From Staphylococcus phage CUB-EPI_14: 46,098 bases of DNA. The first letter of the stretch is position 1. Every line of letters begins with the position of its first letter. Below are positions 2,018-45,945 of the stretch, piece by piece. The translations under genes and the position numbers were made by a program. Where the stretch lies: the sequence record ON325435.2. The stretch is one strand, 5' to 3'. A model generated the notes under the pieces. The model ran no database searches, was not told where the DNA came from, and saw nothing but the letters and a program-made list of their open reading frames with translations.

Positions 2018-3730
2018 ATGTTACTTGAAACATTTAGCAATCAAGACATTATTGATGTGCATGGCGATATGTTTTTCTATCGCAGTATGTATAGAGGGGA
2101 ACATGCCAAGATATTTGAAAGGGCAAAAGATTTAGTCGATAAGGGAGAAGCAGTAGACGCGATTAGGTTTGGTAGTCAAAGTCGCGCTTCAAAGTTACAG
2201 ACACCTTACATCGTAGCTAACGTATCGAAGATGATTGTTGATATACCCTCAACGTTTATTAATCGTTCGTTAGGAGATATAGTAACAACAGTCAACAAAG
2301 AGTACGACGACATGAGCAATACATATGCTAATCGTGTTGATGAAGGTTACAAAGAACAAGACAATCAAATGAACGGTACAAACGAACAACAAGAAGCTGG
2401 GGATAACTCGAATAACTTTGTGAATAACCAGCAAGATATACAAGCTATCGAACAAGAAGAGTTAGAACTTAAAAGGTCACATCAACAAGAAGTGTTAGAT
2501 GAGATAGCAGACAACAGCAAGCTAGTAAGACAACATGGTATGAACTTAAGACAATGGCAAGTAGACGGTGGTATTGTAGCGGTACCTGAAATCATAAACG
2601 GGAAGCCGCGTATTAGTTTTAAAGAGCGTAATGTTTATTATGTTTTAGATGACGGTGTTACATATCAATTGCGTTACAGTATAGAACGTGACGAACAAAA
2701 GTATGTGCATGTTCACGAAGAGGTGGAAAACGAAACAAGTGTAGATGGGACTCATTATCTATATAAAGACAATGGCAATGATAAGTTGGAGTTGATTGAA
2801 GATAACGAACTGATAGAAGAGATTATAGGTATTCCGTCCGATCATTTACAATACACATTACATGATCGTAACCGTACACTATTTGTTTATTTACCTAACG
2901 AGCCTTCGTTTGATAATGAGTATGGTTGGAGTGCATTGTTCGGACAAGAAGGTAAGCAAGACGAGGTCAACTGGACGATTACAAGAGCAGCACAAACCTT
3001 TGAACGTAATGGTAAGCCGCGTATAAGTATCACTAAAGATATATGGGAACAATTACAAAATGCAGCGTTAGAAGAAACAGGCGACCCTCGTAAGATTAAT
3101 CATCGCAACTTAGAAATAACAACGATAGATGAACAGGGACACTCACTAGAAATTCATCAGATAGATACATCTAAGATTGGGGATATTCCATATGTTAAAG
3201 ACATAATCAAGTTCATGCTTATGGAAACACAAACAAGTGAGAAAGCAATCGACTTTTTTAGTGAAGGCAAATCATATTCAGAGAGTGGTACAGCTAAGTT
3301 CTATGATCTGTTCTTATCACTTATGAAAGCAGAACGATTACGCGCAGAGTATGTAGACTTCATACGTCAAGCGTTTGAGAACTGTTTATGGTTAGCAAGC
3401 GTACAAGATAACACAATAGAGATAGAACGTCCTGACATTATGCAAAGAGAGATGTTACCTATCACTTCTAAAGAACGTAGAGATATGAACAACGAAAGCT
3501 ATGAAGCAGGCACACAATCACTTGAAACAACATTACGCAATATCAATCCTGAGAAGTCTGATGATTGGATAGAGAATGAACTCGAGCGTATTGAAGAAGG
3601 CAAACCGTCTGTAGATAGTTTTAGTTTGTTTAACGGTCAACAGTCGTCATTAAACTTCAACGCCAACCGAGATGATAACGGAAATTATCCAGACGATATC
3701 AACAACACGACAGACGGAAGTAGTGAATAA
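2018..3730 (+). CDS. portal protein (SPP1 gp6-like)
   Basis: 570-aa ORF immediately after terL with an acidic C-terminus. Size and synteny are typical for a portal. Confidence 0.7.
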   Translation: MLLETFSNQDIIDVHGDMFFYRSMYRGEHAKIFERAKDLVDKGEAVDAIRFGSQSRASKLQTPYIVANVSKMIVDIPSTFINRSLGDIVTTVNKEYDDMSNTYANRVDEGYKEQDNQMNGTNEQQEAGDNSNNFVNNQQDIQAIEQEELELKRSHQQEVLDEIADNSKLVRQHGMNLRQWQVDGGIVAVPEIINGKPRISFKERNVYYVLDDGVTYQLRYSIERDEQKYVHVHEEVENETSVDGTHYLYKDNGNDKLELIEDNELIEEIIGIPSDHLQYTLHDRNRTLFVYLPNEPSFDNEYGWSALFGQEGKQDEVNWTITRAAQTFERNGKPRISITKDIWEQLQNAALEETGDPRKINHRNLEITTIDEQGHSLEIHQIDTSKIGDIPYVKDIIKFMLMETQTSEKAIDFFSEGKSYSESGTAKFYDLFLSLMKAERLRAEYVDFIRQAFENCLWLASVQDNTIEIERPDIMQREMLPITSKERRDMNNESYEAGTQSLETTLRNINPEKSDDWIENELERIEEGKPSVDSFSLFNGQQSSLNFNANRDDNGNYPDDINNTTDGSSE

Positions 3731-3732
3731 CC

Positions 3733-4770
3733 ATGAAGGAAAATCAAGTCAAAGAAATGGTACTGTTTCTACAACGTCAAATATCTTTTTTAATATTGAA
3801 CGCTAACTTATTAGACGACAAAGAAAAAGATAAGATGTTACGAAACATAAACCACCTTATAGAGATAAACCATTACAACGTAACAGAGTTGGTCGGAGAA
3901 GAGTTAGCTAACGAATACCAACAAGAGTTAGAAAATGCCGAAGCGTTATTGCAAGAGCGAGGGTTGGAGTTAAGTACAGCCCTCAACTCAATGGCGCAAG
4001 ACAACGCGATAAGAATTATTGTTAGCGATACAATGGCCGACCTATCAGCAGCATATAGAACAGCACGAATAAACATGACGAAGAATATCGAAAAGACTAT
4101 CGGAGAAGTTAAAGAAGAAATTGCTAAGGGCATCATGTATGGCGATACTAGAAAGAAAACAACTAAACGTGTACAAGAGGCATTTCTTAAAGAGGGTATG
4201 ACATCGTTCGTTACGAGTGACGGTAAACAATTGCCGTTAGACTTCTATAGCGAAACAGTAGTTAGAACTAAAACACGTACCGCACGAATAAATGCACACG
4301 TTAACACTTACGAAGGTTATGGTGTTAACCTAGTCGAAGTTGTTGGTGCAAGTGATCCATGCCCGCACTGTGGTGCATATCATGACATGGTATTCTCAAC
4401 AGACGGAAAAGATAAACGATTCCCCCACCTTAACGTAAGGAATGTATTTCCGTTACACCCTAACTGTAGATGTAGTGTCATTCCTTTCGTTGCTCAACTA
4501 GAAGATGAGGAAGTCGTACAAGATAAGATTAATCTATCTAAAGAGTTTGATCCGACGAAAGATAGAAGAACGGAAGAACAAAAGGCCTCATACAAGAAAA
4601 TGCAAGACGCTAGAAGGAAAGCAAGACAAGAAGTCAAAGAATATGATAAAATTAAAAGTATATTAGGTAATGACGCGCCTAAAAATATTGGTGCTTATCG
4701 TCGTATGAAACGTAACAAGTCAAAAGGTTACTTAGAAATACAAAGGCGAATGAGAGCGCTAAGTAGTTAA
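3733..4770 (+). CDS. minor head / head morphogenesis protein (phage Mu F / SPP1 gp7-like)
   Basis: 345-aa ORF following the portal. It is translationally coupled to the portal gene: the portal stop and this start are 2 nt apart. Confidence 0.55.
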   Translation: MKENQVKEMVLFLQRQISFLILNANLLDDKEKDKMLRNINHLIEINHYNVTELVGEELANEYQQELENAEALLQERGLELSTALNSMAQDNAIRIIVSDTMADLSAAYRTARINMTKNIEKTIGEVKEEIAKGIMYGDTRKKTTKRVQEAFLKEGMTSFVTSDGKQLPLDFYSETVVRTKTRTARINAHVNTYEGYGVNLVEVVGASDPCPHCGAYHDMVFSTDGKDKRFPHLNVRNVFPLHPNCRCSVIPFVAQLEDEEVVQDKINLSKEFDPTKDRRTEEQKASYKKMQDARRKARQEVKEYDKIKSILGNDAPKNIGAYRRMKRNKSKGYLEIQRRMRALSS

Positions 4771-33983: not shown

Positions 33984-34499
33984 ATGATTGAATGGAAACC
34001 GATTGAAGGTTATGAAGGAAAATACTATATAAACCAATACGGGCAAATAATAAGTCATTACTTTAAAGAGCCTAGAATGTTAAGTATTAAAAGTACAGAC
34101 AACGAGTATTTAAGAGTAAATCTAACTCACAAAGGGAAACGAAAAAGACGGTCAATACACAGGCTTGTTGCTGAAACATTTAAACCTAATACAACTGGAG
34201 AAGATTTGCAGATCAATCACATAGACGGGGACAAATTTAATAATCATGTAGACAACTTAGAATGGTGTACGTGTAGAGATAATATATCTCATGCTTTCGA
34301 AAAGGGTTTGAACAAGAACTGCAAAAATATAATATTAGTGAATATCGAAACGGGAAAAGAGATAAAGTTTATTAGCCAAAGGAAAACAAGCGAATACTTA
34401 GGACAAAAGCAAAACTATGTATGTAGAATGTTTTCTAAAGGTATAAACATCGTCGAAAGTAAGAACGGTAAAATATACAAAGTAAAGCGGGAAAATTAA
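33984..34499 (+). CDS. free-standing HNH homing endonuclease (NUMOD4 + HNH_3)
   Basis: It has an N-terminal W..I.GYEG.Y.I...G.I motif and an HNH_3 core (IHRLVAETF...INHIDGDKFNNHVDNLEWCT). Confidence 0.8.
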   Translation: MIEWKPIEGYEGKYYINQYGQIISHYFKEPRMLSIKSTDNEYLRVNLTHKGKRKRRSIHRLVAETFKPNTTGEDLQINHIDGDKFNNHVDNLEWCTCRDNISHAFEKGLNKNCKNIILVNIETGKEIKFISQRKTSEYLGQKQNYVCRMFSKGINIVESKNGKIYKVKREN

Positions 34500-35839: not shown

Positions 35840-36121
35840 ATGATTATATCAAATAAAAAAATAGAAGCATACGAAGGCAATGAGGATAACGACATTATAT
35901 CTAATCCGATCCACTATAACGGTAATGGAGATATTGATTTAATAGAGTTTTGCAGACAGCAATTTACAGATGAAGAATTTAGAGGCGCAATGAAATTTAC
36001 ACAAATGCGATATGCCTTAAGAACAGGTAGAAAAGATGATGAACTGCAAGAGCAAAAGAAATTGAGAGAATATGCTGATAGAAACATTAAAAGAATAGAG
36101 AAAGACAGAGGTATTGAATAA
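35840..36121 (+). CDS. DUF3310-like protein
   Basis: The NPIHYNG...IDLIEF...MKFTQMRYALRTGRK pattern resembles the DUF3310 family common in phages. Confidence 0.45.
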   Translation: MIISNKKIEAYEGNEDNDIISNPIHYNGNGDIDLIEFCRQQFTDEEFRGAMKFTQMRYALRTGRKDDELQEQKKLREYADRNIKRIEKDRGIE

Positions 36122-36618
36122 TGCAGGTTTATTTAGCAGGAGATATGTTAAGCGAAGGACAACAACTTAGAAGAACATATGAAAAAGAAAAAATAGAAGC
36201 ATTAGGATTTAAGGTTTACAACCCTTCAGATGATGAAAGTATCAACGATAAAAAGAATGCAAAACAAGACGGTTTAGCAGAAAGAATTGTCGAGAATGAC
36301 ACCAGAGGTATTTCAGAAAGTCATATTCTTGTATTCGATTATTTACCTCATGCACAGGGGACACTAACCGAGCTAGGTTATGTACAAGCTATATTAAGAG
36401 AAATGAAAAGAGGGGTTTATAAAGTTTATAATCCGCCTTTAGTGTTTGTTCAATGTACAGACATAAGACAGGGCAACGGACATATACCGACAGAGAGCGA
36501 CAGATTTGAATTTAGTATCAACCAATATGTATATGGTGTGATATTAGAAGTCACTGAAGGCAGAGGGATACAAAGTTTTGATGAGATATTAGAAATGTTA
36601 AAAGAAATTAAAAGATAG
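36121..36618 (+). CDS. nucleoside 2-deoxyribosyltransferase-like protein
   Basis: MQVYLAGDM...TLTELGYVQA matches the NDT/Rcl-family signature (G..., ELG[YF]A). Confidence 0.5.
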   Translation: MQVYLAGDMLSEGQQLRRTYEKEKIEALGFKVYNPSDDESINDKKNAKQDGLAERIVENDTRGISESHILVFDYLPHAQGTLTELGYVQAILREMKRGVYKVYNPPLVFVQCTDIRQGNGHIPTESDRFEFSINQYVYGVILEVTEGRGIQSFDEILEMLKEIKR

Positions 36619-36628
36619 GAGTTATACG

Positions 36629-38434
36629 ATGAATTTTATTGATATTTGTAGCGGTATTGGTGGTTTTCGTACTGCTTTAGAAAACAACGGACATCAATGT
36701 TTAGCGTTTGCTGAAATAGATAAATTCGCTAAACAAAGTTACAAAGCTATATATGATACAAGTCAAGAGGAGGAGTTAGACGATGTTACAGCAGTCACAG
36801 ATGAACATTTTCGAATTTACAGAGGAGAAGTCGACATCATCACAGGAGGTTTCCCGTGTCAAACCTTTAGTATTGCAGGGAAACGTAGAGGGTTTGAAGA
36901 TACAAGAGGAACAATATTCTTTCACATTGCTAGGGCGATTAAAGAGATCCAACCATCTTATGTTTTACTGGAAAACGTCAAAGGGTTACTCTCACACGAC
37001 AAAGGGAGAACTTACGGAACAATCATTCAAACGTTGGATGAATTGGGGTATATCGTCGAATGGGGCGTGTTTAACAGCAAATACTGGGGAGTTCCGCAAA
37101 ATAGAGAACGAGTATACATCTTAGTAACTCGAAAAGATATTTTTAAAACCCCTAAATTATTTAAATTATTAAAGAAGCAAACTACAGTCGACACTCGTTT
37201 AGTTGACATCTTAGAGAAAGACGTAGACGAAAGGTACTATTTATCTGAAGAAAAGACAAGAAAGTTAACGTTGAATGAAGATTTAAGCGGTAGATTAAAC
37301 CAATATGATTTCGCCGAGAGAGATCGTATACACAGTGTAAACAAAGTAAGTCCTACTCTTAACACTATGCAGGGAGGAGATAGGCAACCGAAAGTCGCAA
37401 TAATTGGCAATACATCTAAAACTCATCATAATGCACATAACATTCATGATGTGAGAGGGTTAAGTCCTACAATTCAAGCACGAGATTATAAGGGTGCGAA
37501 ACAAATAGCGATACCAGTTTTAACACCTGATAGAGTGAACAAAGAACAAAATGGCAGAAGGTTTAAAGATAACAACGAATCGATGTTCACTTTAACAAGC
37601 CAAGATAAACACGGTGTTTTAATAAAAGAAGCTACTAAAAAAGGGTATACAGTGGCTAAATTAGGAGATAGCGTGAACACGTCTTATCCTGATAGTAAAA
37701 CTAGAAGAGGTCGTGTAGGTAAACAAGTTGCGCAAACTTTACAAGCAGGAGATGTTAATCAGGGTGTGATTATAGGAGGAGATTTTAATGCCAAGAAAAT
37801 TGAAAAAGACACCTTTGAAATATTGCAAACATTGCAAAAAGAAATTGGAGAGAAAGAGGTTGCCAAATGGAGATCTCGAATACTTGATTCATTTCAACAA
37901 GAGGAAATATTGCAACAAGATATGTATGAGAAGGGATTGGATATTGAACAAAACGAAAAGAAACTCGAACGAAACCAACAGTCGCACGAATGCGAGGTTA
38001 AGAATACAACTTTTGACAAACAAGAGAGAATGCGAGAAATGCCAATCAACAAAGAATTTAGATGTTCATCACATGGACGAGAATCCATTCAACAATTCAC
38101 TAGAGAACTTACAAGTATTATGCAGAAGTTGTCATACGAAACATCACAGGAAAAGAACTTGTACTATCTGCGAGAAACCACACAAGGGATTAGGTTATTG
38201 CAACAAGCATTATATAAGATTCAAGAAGTATGGGAATCCTTGCTACACAAAAAAACAAGTGTCAGAATAAGAAAACTTACCGAAAAAGAATGCTGGCGAC
38301 TTCAGGGCTTTACAGATGAGCAATTTTACAAAGCAAAAAATGACGGCGTAAGTAAATCGCAATTATATAAACAAGCAGGAAATGCGGTTACTGTAAATGT
38401 AGTAGACGCTATAGTTAGAGAGATAAAAAATTAA
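36629..38434 (+). CDS. DNA (cytosine-5) methyltransferase with an about 160-codon insertion
   Basis: Motifs: I FIDICSGIGGFR, IV GGFPCQTFS, VI ENVKGL, VIII QNRERVYIL, a target-recognition region (MFTLTSQDKHGV), IX RKLTEKECWRLQGF, X YKQAGNAVTV. The frame is open across the nested HNH gene. Confidence 0.8.
   Translation: MNFIDICSGIGGFRTALENNGHQCLAFAEIDKFAKQSYKAIYDTSQEEELDDVTAVTDEHFRIYRGEVDIITGGFPCQTFSIAGKRRGFEDTRGTIFFHIARAIKEIQPSYVLLENVKGLLSHDKGRTYGTIIQTLDELGYIVEWGVFNSKYWGVPQNRERVYILVTRKDIFKTPKLFKLLKKQTTVDTRLVDILEKDVDERYYLSEEKTRKLTLNEDLSGRLNQYDFAERDRIHSVNKVSPTLNTMQGGDRQPKVAIIGNTSKTHHNAHNIHDVRGLSPTIQARDYKGAKQIAIPVLTPDRVNKEQNGRRFKDNNESMFTLTSQDKHGVLIKEATKKGYTVAKLGDSVNTSYPDSKTRRGRVGKQVAQTLQAGDVNQGVIIGGDFNAKKIEKDTFEILQTLQKEIGEKEVAKWRSRILDSFQQEEILQQDMYEKGLDIEQNEKKLERNQQSHECEVKNTTFDKQERMREMPINKEFRCSSHGRESIQQFTRELTSIMQKLSYETSQEKNLYYLRETTQGIRLLQQALYKIQEVWESLLHKKTSVRIRKLTEKECWRLQGFTDEQFYKAKNDGVSKSQLYKQAGNAVTVNVVDAIVREIKN
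37788..38270 (+). CDS. HNH endonuclease nested (+1 frame) inside the methyltransferase gene
   Basis: It has its own SD AGGAGGA (37774-37780) and a frame-opening TAG at 37773-37775. It has CxxC/CxxC zinc knuckles and an HH...N...H core (CEKCQSTKNLDVHHMDENPFNNSLENLQVLCRSCHTKHH). Its stop overlaps the first codons of MTase motif IX. Confidence 0.7.
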   Translation: MPRKLKKTPLKYCKHCKKKLERKRLPNGDLEYLIHFNKRKYCNKICMRRDWILNKTKRNSNETNSRTNARLRIQLLTNKRECEKCQSTKNLDVHHMDENPFNNSLENLQVLCRSCHTKHHRKRTCTICEKPHKGLGYCNKHYIRFKKYGNPCYTKKQVSE

Positions 38435-38453
38435 ATAATTGGAGGATAAACAA

Positions 38454-38696
38454 ATGACTAAAAACACATTAAACGATTTAAACAACCACTTATTCGCGCA
38501 ATTAGAAAGATTAGGGGACGAAGAAATGAAAGGGGACGAATTGAAAGAAGAGCTTGAAAGATCTAAAGCCATATCAGACATAGCAAAAAACGTTGTTAGT
38601 AACGGCAATCTTATTTTACAAGCTCATAAATTTAAAGATCAAAGAATAGATAACGAAAACCAACTGCCTGAAATGTTAGAGGATAAAAAGAGATGA
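38454..38696 (+). CDS. hypothetical coiled-coil protein
   Basis: ATG after TTGGAGGATAAACAA. Confidence 0.4.
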   Translation: MTKNTLNDLNNHLFAQLERLGDEEMKGDELKEELERSKAISDIAKNVVSNGNLILQAHKFKDQRIDNENQLPEMLEDKKR

Positions 38697-39766
38697 CGCG
38701 ATTGACATGGAAACGAAAACACATCGACTATGTTAATTCTATATACAAGAAAAACAAAGCAAAAGATGTGACGAAAATGTTTAACGATGAATTCGGCACT
38801 GATTTAAGTGTTAGTGCAGTAAGTAAAAAAATAAGGTATCTAAAAGGGTTAAACGGAAGTTATAAAAACGAAAGCGAAAGGAATGTGAACAATAAACCTA
38901 TAGGAACGATAAGAGAGGGGTTAAATGGATATTTAGAAATAAAAATAAAAAATATAAAATATAACGGCGATAAAAATTGGAAAAAGTATCATGAATATAT
39001 TTGGGAAAAAGAGAATGGTAAAACGATACCTGAAAAATATAAGGTAATTTTTCTTAATGATAACAAGAGAGATTGTCGTATAGAAAACCTTCGTTTAACA
39101 ACTCGTCATGTCTATAGAGTTATGATTAGTAAGAAACTATTTTCTAATGATCCTAAAGAAACGATTAAAGGTATAAAAGAAGCTGAAACATTTATAAAAT
39201 CTAAAAAGCCTAAGAGAACATCGTTTAATTGGGAAAAGAAACACATTGACTTTTTAAAAAAACATGCAAAAGGTAGTAACACAAAAGAGATAACAAAAAA
39301 GTTCAACGATCATTTCAACACTAATAACAGTGATATGTCAGTACGTACACAAGTGTATAATCATAATTTAAAATTCGATAACCACCCCGGAAGATTTAAA
39401 AAAGGGAATATACCACCGGGAGAATATAAAATAGGAGACAAAGCTATAGACGGAGACGGTGGTGTGATAATAAAAATAGCAAATGATCATCATAATTATA
39501 AAAGGAATTGGAAGAAGTACCATATTTATTTATGGGAAAAGTATAAAGGAACCGTACCTGAAGAACACTTAGTCATATTTTTAAATAATGATAACAGAGA
39601 CTTTAGAATAGAAAATTTAGAACTTGTCCCTAGAAGTGTTTATCAAATGATGATATTAAACGACTTAGTATATGATGATCCAGAACTCACAAAAACAGGC
39701 ATTAATATAGCTAAGTTATTAAAAAAACAAACTAAAAATTCAGTGAAAGAGATGAAGAAAAGATAA
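38693..39766 (+). CDS. tandemly duplicated NUMOD-like + degenerate HNH_3-like protein (likely non-catalytic DNA-binding)
   Basis: Two about 175-aa repeats each contain W.KKHID...FND.F and NWKKYH.YxWEKxxGxxPE..VIFLNxDNRDxRIENLxL. The HNH_3 catalytic His is replaced (HIDG to FLND) in both copies. Confidence 0.55.
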   Translation: MTRLTWKRKHIDYVNSIYKKNKAKDVTKMFNDEFGTDLSVSAVSKKIRYLKGLNGSYKNESERNVNNKPIGTIREGLNGYLEIKIKNIKYNGDKNWKKYHEYIWEKENGKTIPEKYKVIFLNDNKRDCRIENLRLTTRHVYRVMISKKLFSNDPKETIKGIKEAETFIKSKKPKRTSFNWEKKHIDFLKKHAKGSNTKEITKKFNDHFNTNNSDMSVRTQVYNHNLKFDNHPGRFKKGNIPPGEYKIGDKAIDGDGGVIIKIANDHHNYKRNWKKYHIYLWEKYKGTVPEEHLVIFLNNDNRDFRIENLELVPRSVYQMMILNDLVYDDPELTKTGINIAKLLKKQTKNSVKEMKKR

Positions 39767-44445: not shown

Positions 44446-45945
44446 ATGGAAATTATAAACAAAAGTATATATGACATTATAGATTATGATGACAACCCTA
44501 GATACAACGATGAAGCAATAGACTATGTGAAAGAAAGTATTAAAGAATTTGGTTTTAAAGTACCGATTATCATTGATGAAAATGATGTGATCATAGCAGG
44601 ACATACAAGAAAGAAAGCGGCACTCGAGATAGGCATTAAAGAAGTGCCAGTTATTGTTGCCGATGATCTTACGCCGCAACAAGTTGACGCATTTAGATTG
44701 GCCGACAATAAAGTTGCTGAATTTAGTGAGTGGGACGAAGATTTATTGATGAGTGAACTCAATAAACTAGAAGATTTAGATATGAGTGCGTTTGGCTTTG
44801 ATGATATGGAGTTAGATTTAGAAGATACAGAAATCGAAGAAGAAGAGATTGAAGAAGATGAAGTGGTAGAAATACCGGAAGAACCTAAGTCTAAAATCGG
44901 TCAAATATATCAACTCGGCAATCACAGGCTCATGTGTGGCGATAGTACAAGCGATGAAGATGTTAGCAAGCTAATGAACGGACAACAGGCATCGTTAGTG
45001 TTCACTGATCCACCTTATGGCGCTAAGAAACAAAAAGACGGTGTACTCAATGACAATCTTAACTATGACAGCTTATTAGAATTTAATAAGTTATGGATAC
45101 CACTATCATTTAAATATTTAAAAGAGAATGGCAGTTGGTATTGTTGGGGATTAGATCAACCGCTTATGGATATTTACACAGAGATATTAAAACCTAAGAT
45201 CAAGAACGACGAGATTGTATTTAAAAACTTAATCACATGGGATAAAGGATCAGGACAGGGGCAAAACCAAGAAGGTCGAACGCAATATGCAACAGCAGAT
45301 GAGAAGTGTTTGTTTGTTGCTGGAGATATAGACAGTATGCGTAATAATTTCTATGAAGGTTATCGGCCTATATTAAACGCATTAAAAGAACAAGCCGAAA
45401 AAGTAGGATTAGGATCTAAGAAGTACAAAAAGATCATAGGAACACAGATGTATAGTCATTACTTCTCGGACTCTCAATTCTCACTAATACCACGAGAAGT
45501 ATTTGCTAAGTTAAAGAAACACTACGGAGAAGCATGGGAATTAACATGGGAAGAATTAAGTCGTATGATAAACAAAGCTACACCCGGCCATAATGATTAT
45601 GTAGAAGAACACAGAATGAAGAGGTCATACTTCAATAACACACATGATAATATGAATAACGTATGGCACATTAACAGAATAGTATCAGGCACAGAAGAGT
45701 ATAGAGACAAAGGCCAACACGTTACACCTAAACCATTAGCCCTATGTAGTCGAGGCATTAAATCAAGTTCTAAAGAACAAGAAATAGTTCTCGATTTATT
45801 CGGAGGCAGTGGTAGTGTACTTATATCTAGTGAGTTAGAAAATAGAACATGCTATACAATGGAATACCAACCTCAATATGTGGATGCAATCATAGAAAGA
45901 TGGGAAAGACGCACAGGTAGAAAGGCGGAGTTACTGAATGGATAA
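44446..45945 (+). CDS. ParB-like nuclease domain fused to N6-adenine/N4-cytosine DNA methyltransferase
   Basis: The N-terminus is ParB/Srx-like (DYDDNPR...IAGHTRKKAALEIG). It has an acidic linker and an MTase with DPPY (FTDPPYG) followed later by the AdoMet motif LDLFGGSGS (beta-class order). Confidence 0.8.
   Translation: MEIINKSIYDIIDYDDNPRYNDEAIDYVKESIKEFGFKVPIIIDENDVIIAGHTRKKAALEIGIKEVPVIVADDLTPQQVDAFRLADNKVAEFSEWDEDLLMSELNKLEDLDMSAFGFDDMELDLEDTEIEEEEIEEDEVVEIPEEPKSKIGQIYQLGNHRLMCGDSTSDEDVSKLMNGQQASLVFTDPPYGAKKQKDGVLNDNLNYDSLLEFNKLWIPLSFKYLKENGSWYCWGLDQPLMDIYTEILKPKIKNDEIVFKNLITWDKGSGQGQNQEGRTQYATADEKCLFVAGDIDSMRNNFYEGYRPILNALKEQAEKVGLGSKKYKKIIGTQMYSHYFSDSQFSLIPREVFAKLKKHYGEAWELTWEELSRMINKATPGHNDYVEEHRMKRSYFNNTHDNMNNVWHINRIVSGTEEYRDKGQHVTPKPLALCSRGIKSSSKEQEIVLDLFGGSGSVLISSELENRTCYTMEYQPQYVDAIIERWERRTGRKAELLNG

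Follow-up and report, generated by a model that had tools for sequence, protein, structure and literature searches.

A probable HNH homing-endonuclease gene nested out of frame in a C5-cytosine methyltransferase gene of Staphylococcus phage CUB-EPI_14

Group I introns of Gram-positive phages encode HNH endonucleases, such as I-HmuI of SPO1, and the mobE gene in nrdA of Aeromonas phage Aeh1, which Friedrich et al. are said to have described in PNAS in 2007, reportedly encodes a free-standing homing endonuclease and breaks up the gene that hosts it ('genes in pieces'). Inteins with homing endonuclease open reading frames (ORFs) placed out of frame or antisense have also been described (bioRxiv 10.1101/2025.01.02.630785; 10.64898/2026.09.14.751524). 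The closest precedent is the ShiLan domain of mycobacteriophages, in which an HNH ORF lies out of frame in a DNA methylase gene whose own frame stays open, with no intron or intein and with a disjunct distribution; the passenger peptide is predicted to be hairpin-like, and gp60 of Pacc40 is a second case (Arsenault, Gosselin and Gogarten, Genes 2025, 16:178; PMC11855218). An earlier report on ShiLan (PMC9957025) and a description of gp54/gp55 of Applejack (PMC12613952) are also available. Here, we focus on a gene for a C5-cytosine methyltransferase (MTase) in the 46,098-bp record of Staphylococcus phage CUB-EPI_14 (ON325435; the whole of this stretch is called the window below), within which a complete HNH endonuclease ORF of 160 residues is nested in the +1 frame.

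The reading that we favour, with a probability of roughly 0.8, is that a mobile HNH homing-endonuclease gene has lodged in the C5-MTase gene and that, without splicing, two proteins are encoded by the same 483 nucleotides (nt). Both proteins would then be made, the 601-residue enzyme would be active, and the HNH protein would cut and home. As in ShiLan and Pacc40, the HNH ORF is complete and out of frame within a phage DNA methylase gene, the host frame is free of stops across the insert, and no intron or intein is detectable. The locus further resembles ShiLan in that the host-frame peptide is predicted, at low confidence, to form a helical hairpin, in that a disjunct distribution suggests homing (the synonymous divergence, dS, is 0.25 in the insert and about 1.0 or more in the flanks, and phage IME-SA4 has the gene without the insert), and in that most members of the family studied here have their HNH stop at the extreme 3′ limit of the insert, where it adjoins or overlaps host codons. 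The +1 offset of the HNH relative to its host is the same in Applejack gp54/gp55 as in CUB-EPI_14. The host encoded by Applejack gp54, however, belongs to N6_N4_Mtase (PF01555), whereas that of CUB-EPI_14 is a C5-cytosine MTase (PF00145); the two HNH proteins have only the core motif in common (E = 7e-5 over 33 residues), and tblastn gives no mycobacteriophage match. The CUB-EPI_14 HNH has a canonical Shine-Dalgarno (SD) sequence and an ATG, whereas a GTG start and leaderless initiation have been proposed for ShiLan, and, unlike ShiLan, the HNH family of C5-MTases is large and phylogenetically broad. Since the host family differs, only the core motif is common and no mycobacteriophage match was found, the relation to ShiLan is one of analogy, not lineage: the nested HNH of C5-MTases is an independently evolved variant of a kind described in 2025, and the kind itself is not new. 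The initial annotation of this DNA, made from the sequence alone, had called the arrangement unfamiliar in this gene family; ShiLan and Pacc40 are a precedent (PMC11855218), but one in N6/N4 rather than C5 enzymes. A literature search, in which the coverage of journals was incomplete, did not turn up this arrangement for any C5-methyltransferase, any Staphylococcus phage, or the HNH family at issue.

The MTase protein is an exact match to GenBank URG13520.1 ('DNA-cytosine methyltransferase'), and the paper on the phage (Viruses 2022, 14:1340) mentions neither a methyltransferase nor an HNH gene. Pfam PF00145 (DNA_methylase) matches the 601-residue ORF at 2.2e-83 in two stretches that are split by the insert, and the C5-MTase motifs I, IV (PCQ), VI (ENV), VIII (QxRxR), IX, and X (GN) follow in order in a single frame; several target-recognition modules complete the 5′ part, which ends in ...TLQAGDVNQGVII. 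Between 36629 and 38434, the MTase frame contains 0 stops, the HNH frame 38 (0 inside the HNH ORF), and the third frame 61. The SD sequence AGGAGGA doubles in the MTase frame as the Gly-Gly of a conserved GGDF, and ATAGGAGGAG is kept across the Staphylococcus-group loci. At the other end, the HNH stop (TAA, 38268-38270) overlaps the V-R-I-R codons (I-R) at the start of motif IX. The positions that the initial annotation had assigned to both ORFs, the SD, the ATG, the upstream TAG, and the TAA were all correct on direct reading of the sequence, as was its description of an E/K/Q-rich insert in an open MTase frame: translated in that frame, the insert is 36% E+K+Q with 0 stops, and AlphaFold2 (AF2) predicts long helices with a predicted local distance difference test score (pLDDT) of 24-54.

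The HNH ORF is matched by Pfam PF01844 with 24.9 bits (cut-off, 21.4), and its product has four CxxC pairs and an HH(94-95)...N...H core, in agreement with the CxxC zinc knuckles and HH-N-H core that had been proposed. Twelve residues, namely C13, C16, C82, H94, H95, N103, N107, C112, C115, H116, C125, and C128, are invariant in 55 HNH homologues, and an AF2 model of the protein (mean pLDDT 90) places predicted strands at 91-95 and 108-112, followed by a helix at 113-120. The exact 160-residue sequence is absent from a collection of 15 billion proteins and is thus not annotated anywhere. A promoter and terminator scan gave fewer promoter-like sites than shuffled controls, and hence no evidence of an internal promoter.

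Whether the host frame could be open by chance was calculated by holding the HNH protein fixed, drawing synonymous codons from the codon usage of the phage, and applying exact dynamic programming. Over the HNH ORF, the MTase frame has 0 stops against 19.8 expected, with P(open) = 3.3e-12. With a +1 offset, a host-frame stop requires an HNH codon with T in third position, followed by a codon that starts with AA, AG, or GA; at the 71 risk junctions, where a T would give a stop, 0 HNH codons end in T (20 expected), against 33 at the other 88 junctions, and the third frame over the HNH contains 11-12 stops in close Staphylococcus-group relatives. Related loci give similar values, with P(open) of about 2e-12 in L023 and L024 and of 2e-9 in the 54%-identical L022; when 48 nested loci are pooled, T-ending codons make up 0/2674 at risk junctions and 1485/5246 elsewhere. 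Homologues that are free-standing or accompanied by a decayed MTase have 9-23 stops in the former host frame, against 15-26 expected. An HNH family intrinsically poor in off-frame stops was considered and ruled out by the AT-rich free-standing or decayed copies, which have 13-23. The open MTase frame is therefore not a product of chance, and selection acts on frame openness. Every NNT codon has a synonymous NNC codon, so that the +1 offset lets the host frame stay open without amino-acid cost to the HNH; this zero cost would follow from the genetic code itself. For the GC-rich Applejack genome, in contrast, 5.2 stops are expected and P(open) is 3e-3, whereas the openness in AT-rich CUB-EPI_14 (3e-12) is far beyond chance. 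An artefact of assembly, which the initial annotation had set beside chance as a possible source of the pattern, was ruled out by the identity with URG13520.1, by the same sequence at 99% identity in independent Logan and ENA assemblies, and by several diverged assemblies (L023, L024, L027-L030) with the same nested arrangement.

Alignment to insert-free homologues, as had been suggested for fixing the boundaries, delimits the insert to about 37775-38263, where 163 codons stand in place of a linker of about 4 residues. The insertion point is the junction of the last target-recognition module and motif IX; in gp14 of SpGS-1, this junction reads ...SQGVV-EPDF-RIRKLT. The closest MTase over the 5′ part, gp50 of IME-SA4, lacks the insert, and a synthetic sequence from which the insert was deleted aligns in one piece with Streptococcus phage MTases (97% coverage, 67% identity). 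In P0163 and P0166, about 150 extra residues of target-recognition modules occupy the same junction, which thus marks a natural boundary between modules and can accommodate large insertions. Of the ~489 nt inserted, 483 nt are HNH ORF, with only about 6 nt beyond the ORF and the SD. An Rfam search of 36000-39000 at a permissive E<=10 returned no intron and only three chance-level matches, and a Pfam search of the 601-residue ORF returned only PF00145, with no Hint or intein domain. A group I intron was accordingly rejected (no Rfam intron match in an insert that is nearly all ORF), and the expectation that there would be no room for an intron core held; an intein was rejected too, since the long ORF has neither a Hint nor an intein domain, the HNH is encoded in a different frame, and the host-frame peptide is unconstrained. 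Genes in pieces at the nested HNH site were dismissed because the host frame is continuous through the insert, and an MTase-HNH +1 frameshift fusion because a stop interrupts the HNH frame 4 codons before the ATG and because, in most relatives, the HNH has an ATG and SD of its own. Megablast and tblastn searches of INPHARED with the MTase found no phage covering >=80% of the 601-residue protein, so the phage collection offers no second copy of the arrangement.

These features also set the locus apart from the other described systems. As with I-HmuI of SPO1, a gene for an HNH homing endonuclease has entered a conserved phage gene at the site of a conserved motif, but there is no Rfam ribozyme match, and the host frame is open, which an intron would not need. 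As with mobE in nrdA, a free-standing HNH-type gene with its own translation signals lies inside a conserved phage gene, with no intron or intein and with host function presumably kept; there, however, the host consists of two ORFs with reassembling products, whereas the CUB-EPI_14 host frame is continuous and one polypeptide is predicted. The inteins mentioned above likewise have the endonuclease in a different frame from a translated-through host-frame insertion, but their host-frame peptide excises itself, whereas that of CUB-EPI_14 has no Hint or intein domain and is unconstrained.

Which frame is under selection was assessed from the ratio of nonsynonymous to synonymous substitution rates (dN/dS) in six HNH-bearing alleles of the Staphylococcus group. 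The HNH frame gives a dN/dS of 0.17 (dS 0.25), the 50 codons of motif IX-X just downstream 0.12 (dS about 1.0), and the last recognition module just upstream 0.18 (dS 1 or more), whereas the insert read in the MTase frame gives 1.69 (dS 0.05). Substitutions between the window and L005, a 94%-identical metagenome copy, number 20 at HNH third codon positions, 13 at first, and 5 at second; read in the MTase frame, 36/38 are nonsynonymous and 2 synonymous. Purifying selection thus maintains the HNH protein and also, in its own frame, the part of the MTase 3′ of the insert, and the passenger peptide in the MTase frame is selected only for the absence of stops. The AF2 predictions point the same way, with a pLDDT of 90 for the HNH frame and of 24-54 for the MTase frame of the insert, and the dN/dS of motif IX-X is indirect evidence for m5C activity of the enzyme with the insert. 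The term 'overprinted' in the initial annotation had the direction reversed: the HNH is old, with hundreds of homologues, and the MTase-frame peptide is the novel, unconstrained reading. The synonymous divergence of the insert is 4-8 times below that of both flanks, and L023, L024, and L027 are 66-70% identical to the window in the 5′ catalytic part but 86-88% identical in the HNH cassette and its immediate flanks. The low dS and the mosaic identity fit the pattern of an element that has spread horizontally among already diverged alleles, and they support an insert younger than its flanks.

A word-indexed search found 194 HNH homologues, and an exhaustive search found 379 cluster representatives (50% identity, E<=1e-10); with the MTase-frame translation as the query, >25 protein clusters at 70-99% identity continue uninterrupted across the insert. 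Scanning metagenomes with an HNH alignment yielded 80 loci, which together with viral, genome, and looked-up loci gave 81 distinct HNH sequences. The host (-1) frame is stop-free in 73 of the 81, over a GC range of 0.33 to 0.63, and 59 of these 73 have the strict motif IX pattern in the same frame after the insert, the remainder being for the most part variants in spacing or short contigs. PF00145 matches each of the ten host ORFs tested (10/10) in two stretches. Median expected stops and median log10 P(open) are 19.5 and -13.6 where the GC of the HNH is below 0.42, 12.7 and -7.5 from 0.42 to 0.52, and 9.7 and -5.1 above 0.52. Among 66 nested loci, an ATG stands at the aligned start in 62 and an SD-like motif in 50, and the HNH stop usually overlaps the R-R-L-T codons of motif IX. 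The host MTases have very different recognition domains and catalytic domains that are 28-46% identical, with a constant insertion site at the motif IX junction. By tblastn against INPHARED, the HNH has distant matches only, none of them in Staphylococcus or Mycobacterium phages; scans of IMG/VR and of GTDB genomes with a single protein as the query gave only relatives of <=60% identity, and these too proved to be nested. On bacterial genome contigs, nested copies occur in Virgibacillus proomii (L018) and in metagenome-assembled genomes of Treponema (L019) and Akkermansia (L020).

Several members of the family depart from the common arrangement. The copies with 9-23 stops in the former host frame lie downstream of a complete MTase (L002, L040), beside MTase remnants (L004, L010, L044, L082), or alone (L035). 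At L040:1008-1583, a motif X remnant is fused to the HNH C-terminus, 3′ of the complete MTase; at L004:3952-4107, a motif I remnant runs into the HNH start; at L010:1-2241, MTase fragments in three frames surround the HNH; and at L082:2474-4176, a motif IX-X tail is joined to another MTase. In all four, the former host frame is full of stops. In P0271 (539 aa) and P0278 (478 aa), an HNH homologue without the C-terminal zinc finger is fused in frame inside the MTase, between the recognition region and motif IX (...CRSCHTKYERNKDKTELRIRKLTP...), these being in-frame versions of the same insertion, and a similar change of frame, from HNH to MTase, is seen in P0016. A GC-rich subgroup (L043, L045, L057, L058, L060) has an HNH of 223 aa and a host-frame reading about 60 residues longer before motif IX.

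Two other peculiarities concern the host gene. At L024:2978-5050 and L023:3423-5020, in close relatives, an additional break between motif VIII and the recognition region divides the MTase into two ORFs, alpha and beta. The gap between them contains a free-standing HNH_3 gene (3553-4026) in L024, whereas that in L023 measures only 14 nt and contains no endonuclease. The gene with the nested HNH is here also a case of genes in pieces, at another site. Four unrelated HNH-bearing C5-MTase loci share one in-frame stop (TAG or TGA) at the identical motif IX codon, VRRLTPL-*-LECERLQGFPD (L038:3007-3009, L041:3010-3012, L088:2240-2242, and L008:3498-3500); the frame is intact afterwards through motif X to the normal end, with many synonymous differences between the loci. 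L003 has CAA (Gln) at this position, and L011 has CTT-TAA-C at 2698, with the remainder of motif IX in the +1 frame, in a prfB-like context. The conserved stop may reflect readthrough or recoding.

The locus lies in the early/replication module of a Staphylococcus siphovirus, which includes genes for DnaB, SSB, a free-standing HNH, a nucleotide-kinase-like protein, a nucleoside deoxyribosyltransferase, the C5-MTase, a tandem HNH_3 protein, a resolvase, and a ParB-methyltransferase (Table 1). Within a span of 6 kb, the window contains at least three HNH-type genes. The two halves of the tandem HNH_3 protein resemble each other, each with an N-terminal ...KHID...KEITK(K/M)FND..., and the protein looks like a duplicated or fused free-standing endonuclease. 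With the ParB-type enzyme beside the C5-MTase, the phage has two methyltransferases.

Table 1. Coordinates of the nested locus and of neighbouring genes in the CUB-EPI_14 window
Feature	Coordinates	Strand	Description and basis
Free-standing HNH endonuclease gene	33984..34499	+	phrog_59; directly 3′ of the SSB gene
Read-through C5-cytosine MTase ORF	36629..38434	+	601 aa (protein-coding part 36629-38431); ORF list, PF00145, URG13520.1
MTase 5′ part	36629..37774	+	motifs I (FxGxGG), IV (GFPCQ), VI (ENVKGL), VIII (QNRERV); translation, alignments to IME-SA4 gp50 and SpGS-1 gp14
Upstream in-frame stop of HNH, TAG	37773..37775	+	closes the HNH frame 4 codons before the ATG; sequence, frame scan
SD sequence AGGAGGA	37774..37780	+	8 nt before the HNH ATG (37788)
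Inserted element	37775..38263	+	~489 nt, 163 codons in the MTase frame (GGDFNAKK...HKKTSV); boundaries +/-2 codons
HNH endonuclease ORF	37788..38270	+	160 aa, +1 frame relative to the MTase; start offset 1159 nt
MTase 3′ part	38264..38434	+	motif IX (RIRKLTEKECWRLQGF) and motif X (YKQAGNAVTVNV)
Tandem HNH_3 gene	38693..39766	+	357 aa, two tandem HNH_3 units; two genes downstream of the MTase
Second DNA methyltransferase gene	44446..45945	+	ParB-nuclease-domain type (phrog_498/620)

Other explanations of the open frame have been weighed against a tolerated homing-endonuclease insertion. The nuclease and the MTase might be functionally coupled, either as a deliberate unit (restriction-modification-like or host-DNA-degrading) or through a read-through peptide that serves as a functional MTase domain, and nesting would then guarantee co-inheritance and co-expression. 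The near-obligate association of the HNH family with C5-MTases is in keeping with such coupling, as are the 'free-standing' members that adjoin MTases or MTase remnants, the known in-frame MTase-HNH fusion proteins (P0271, P0278), and the predicted helical character of the insert in the MTase frame. We nevertheless regard it as improbable, because the insertion site is constant despite diverse recognition domains and catalytic domains only 28-46% identical, which fits a homing site and not a matched specificity; in addition, the MTase-frame peptide is free of amino-acid constraint (36 nonsynonymous vs 2 synonymous substitutions; dN/dS 1.69), the insert appears younger than the flanks, and insert-free alleles are common. 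The 'deliberately coupled methyltransferase-nuclease unit' that the initial annotation had entertained is thus not favoured, the same HNH family being found in MTases with many target-recognition domains and always at the motif IX junction. A still smaller probability attaches to removal or bypassing of the insert, whether by an unrecognised self-splicing RNA, translational bypassing, or protein splicing, to give an MTase of about 440 aa. Homing endonuclease genes within coding sequences do mostly ride in introns or inteins, and Rfam is limited to described families, which leaves room for a novel ribozyme; but an open host frame would then be needless, yet its chance probability is about 1e-12 here, with 0/2674 at the pooled risk junctions. 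Only 6 nt of the insert extend beyond the ORF plus SD, neither an Rfam match nor an intein domain was found, and an HNH that is out of frame cannot be an intein domain.

The MTase might also be split or dead, that is, made as an N-terminal fragment, as two fragments, or as an MTase-HNH frameshift fusion, with the open frame a relic or a coincidence. The natural two-piece versions of the same MTase (L023, L024), the two stops within the insert of L005, and the loss of motifs IV-VI in L022 point in this direction, but chance is excluded, a separately initiated C-terminal fragment would not need the 5′ part of the insert to be open, motifs IX-X are under purifying selection in frame (dN/dS 0.12), and truly decayed MTases regain the expected number of stops. 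A frameshift fusion is further opposed by the closure of the HNH frame 4 codons before its ATG and by the presence of an own ATG in 62/66 relatives, and we regard the whole explanation as very improbable. The tolerated in-frame insertion of a homing endonuclease, which the initial annotation had put forward, is supported by the insert-free homologues, the lack of an intron signal, selection for the open frame, purifying selection on the HNH and on the MTase motifs after the insert (dN/dS 0.17 for the HNH and 0.12 for motif IX-X, as against 1.69 for the insert in the MTase frame), and the younger insert.

Several observations weigh against this reading and should be set beside it. The assignment to HNH rests on Pfam and on sequence motifs, whereas a Foldseek search of the model against PDB gave no significant match (best HNH match 4h9d, E = 0.16) and a sequence-profile search of PDB with the HNH gave none. 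The AF2 model of the whole 601-residue enzyme has a mean pLDDT of 50 and cannot show the insert to be clear of the DNA cleft. Dual-coding constraint may account in part for the low dS of the insert, although avoidance of T at 71 sites would not account for a gap of 4-8-fold. Across the wider family, HNH identity is positively correlated with host-MTase identity (rho 0.45), so part of the history is vertical; this correlation is ambiguous and was not used as evidence for homing. Finally, the insert of L005 contains two MTase-frame stops (at 86-88 and about 260), the S. haemolyticus NCBI protein P0160 passes into another frame within the insert and ends there, as would be expected from a frameshift, and L022 (3765-4235) has lost motifs IV-VI although its frame is open over the HNH. 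The MTase is therefore not always maintained.

Under the nested homing-endonuclease reading, ribosomes that initiate at 36629 would read through the insert and yield a 601-residue MTase with a 160-residue, E/K/Q-rich passenger of low predicted structure, while those that initiate at the internal SD and ATG (37774-37790) would yield, in the +1 frame, the 160-residue HNH nuclease. The junction is naturally permissive, since relatives have extra recognition modules in it, and selection has kept the host frame open through a synonymous choice (NNC for NNT) that leaves the nuclease protein unchanged. The element would thereby spare a gene useful to the phage, presumably for protection from host restriction, and, because the phage gene is not inactivated, could persist without an intron or intein. 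During co-infection, the nuclease probably cuts insert-free MTase alleles near the conserved motif IX coding sequence, and repair would copy the element in. With somewhat less assurance than for the locus itself, we consider it probable that the CUB-EPI_14 locus belongs to a large, previously unrecognised lineage of HNH homing-endonuclease genes in phages and prophages, from 33% to 63% GC, that are almost obligately nested in the +1 frame just 5′ of motif IX of C5-MTases, that keep the host frame open purely by synonymous choice (NNT to NNC), and that arose independently of ShiLan. Such 'frame-stealth' nesting would give homing endonuclease genes a third general means, alongside introns and inteins, of residing in a coding sequence while leaving it functional.

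The locus provides the statistically cleanest evidence so far of a homing endonuclease gene inside a protein-coding gene without an intron or intein, with the host read through. For AT-rich CUB-EPI_14, about 20 expected stops stand against 0 observed, a contrast far harder to show in the GC-rich mycobacteriophage cases. The phenomenon now includes a second methylase superfamily, unrelated to the first, as well as phages of Firmicutes, with dozens of loci alike, and a canonical internal ribosome-binding site that doubles as host Gly-Gly is added to it; a simple genetic-code rule is suggested for the use of the +1 offset. Gene callers and GenBank annotate one gene of the two, the HNH being missing here and the MTase in many metagenome contigs, so that such elements are systematically missed. 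The 160-residue passenger also marks a site in C5-MTases that tolerates large insertions, which is of use in enzyme engineering. The entire HNH family appears to be specialised for a nested lifestyle at the motif IX junction of C5-MTases.

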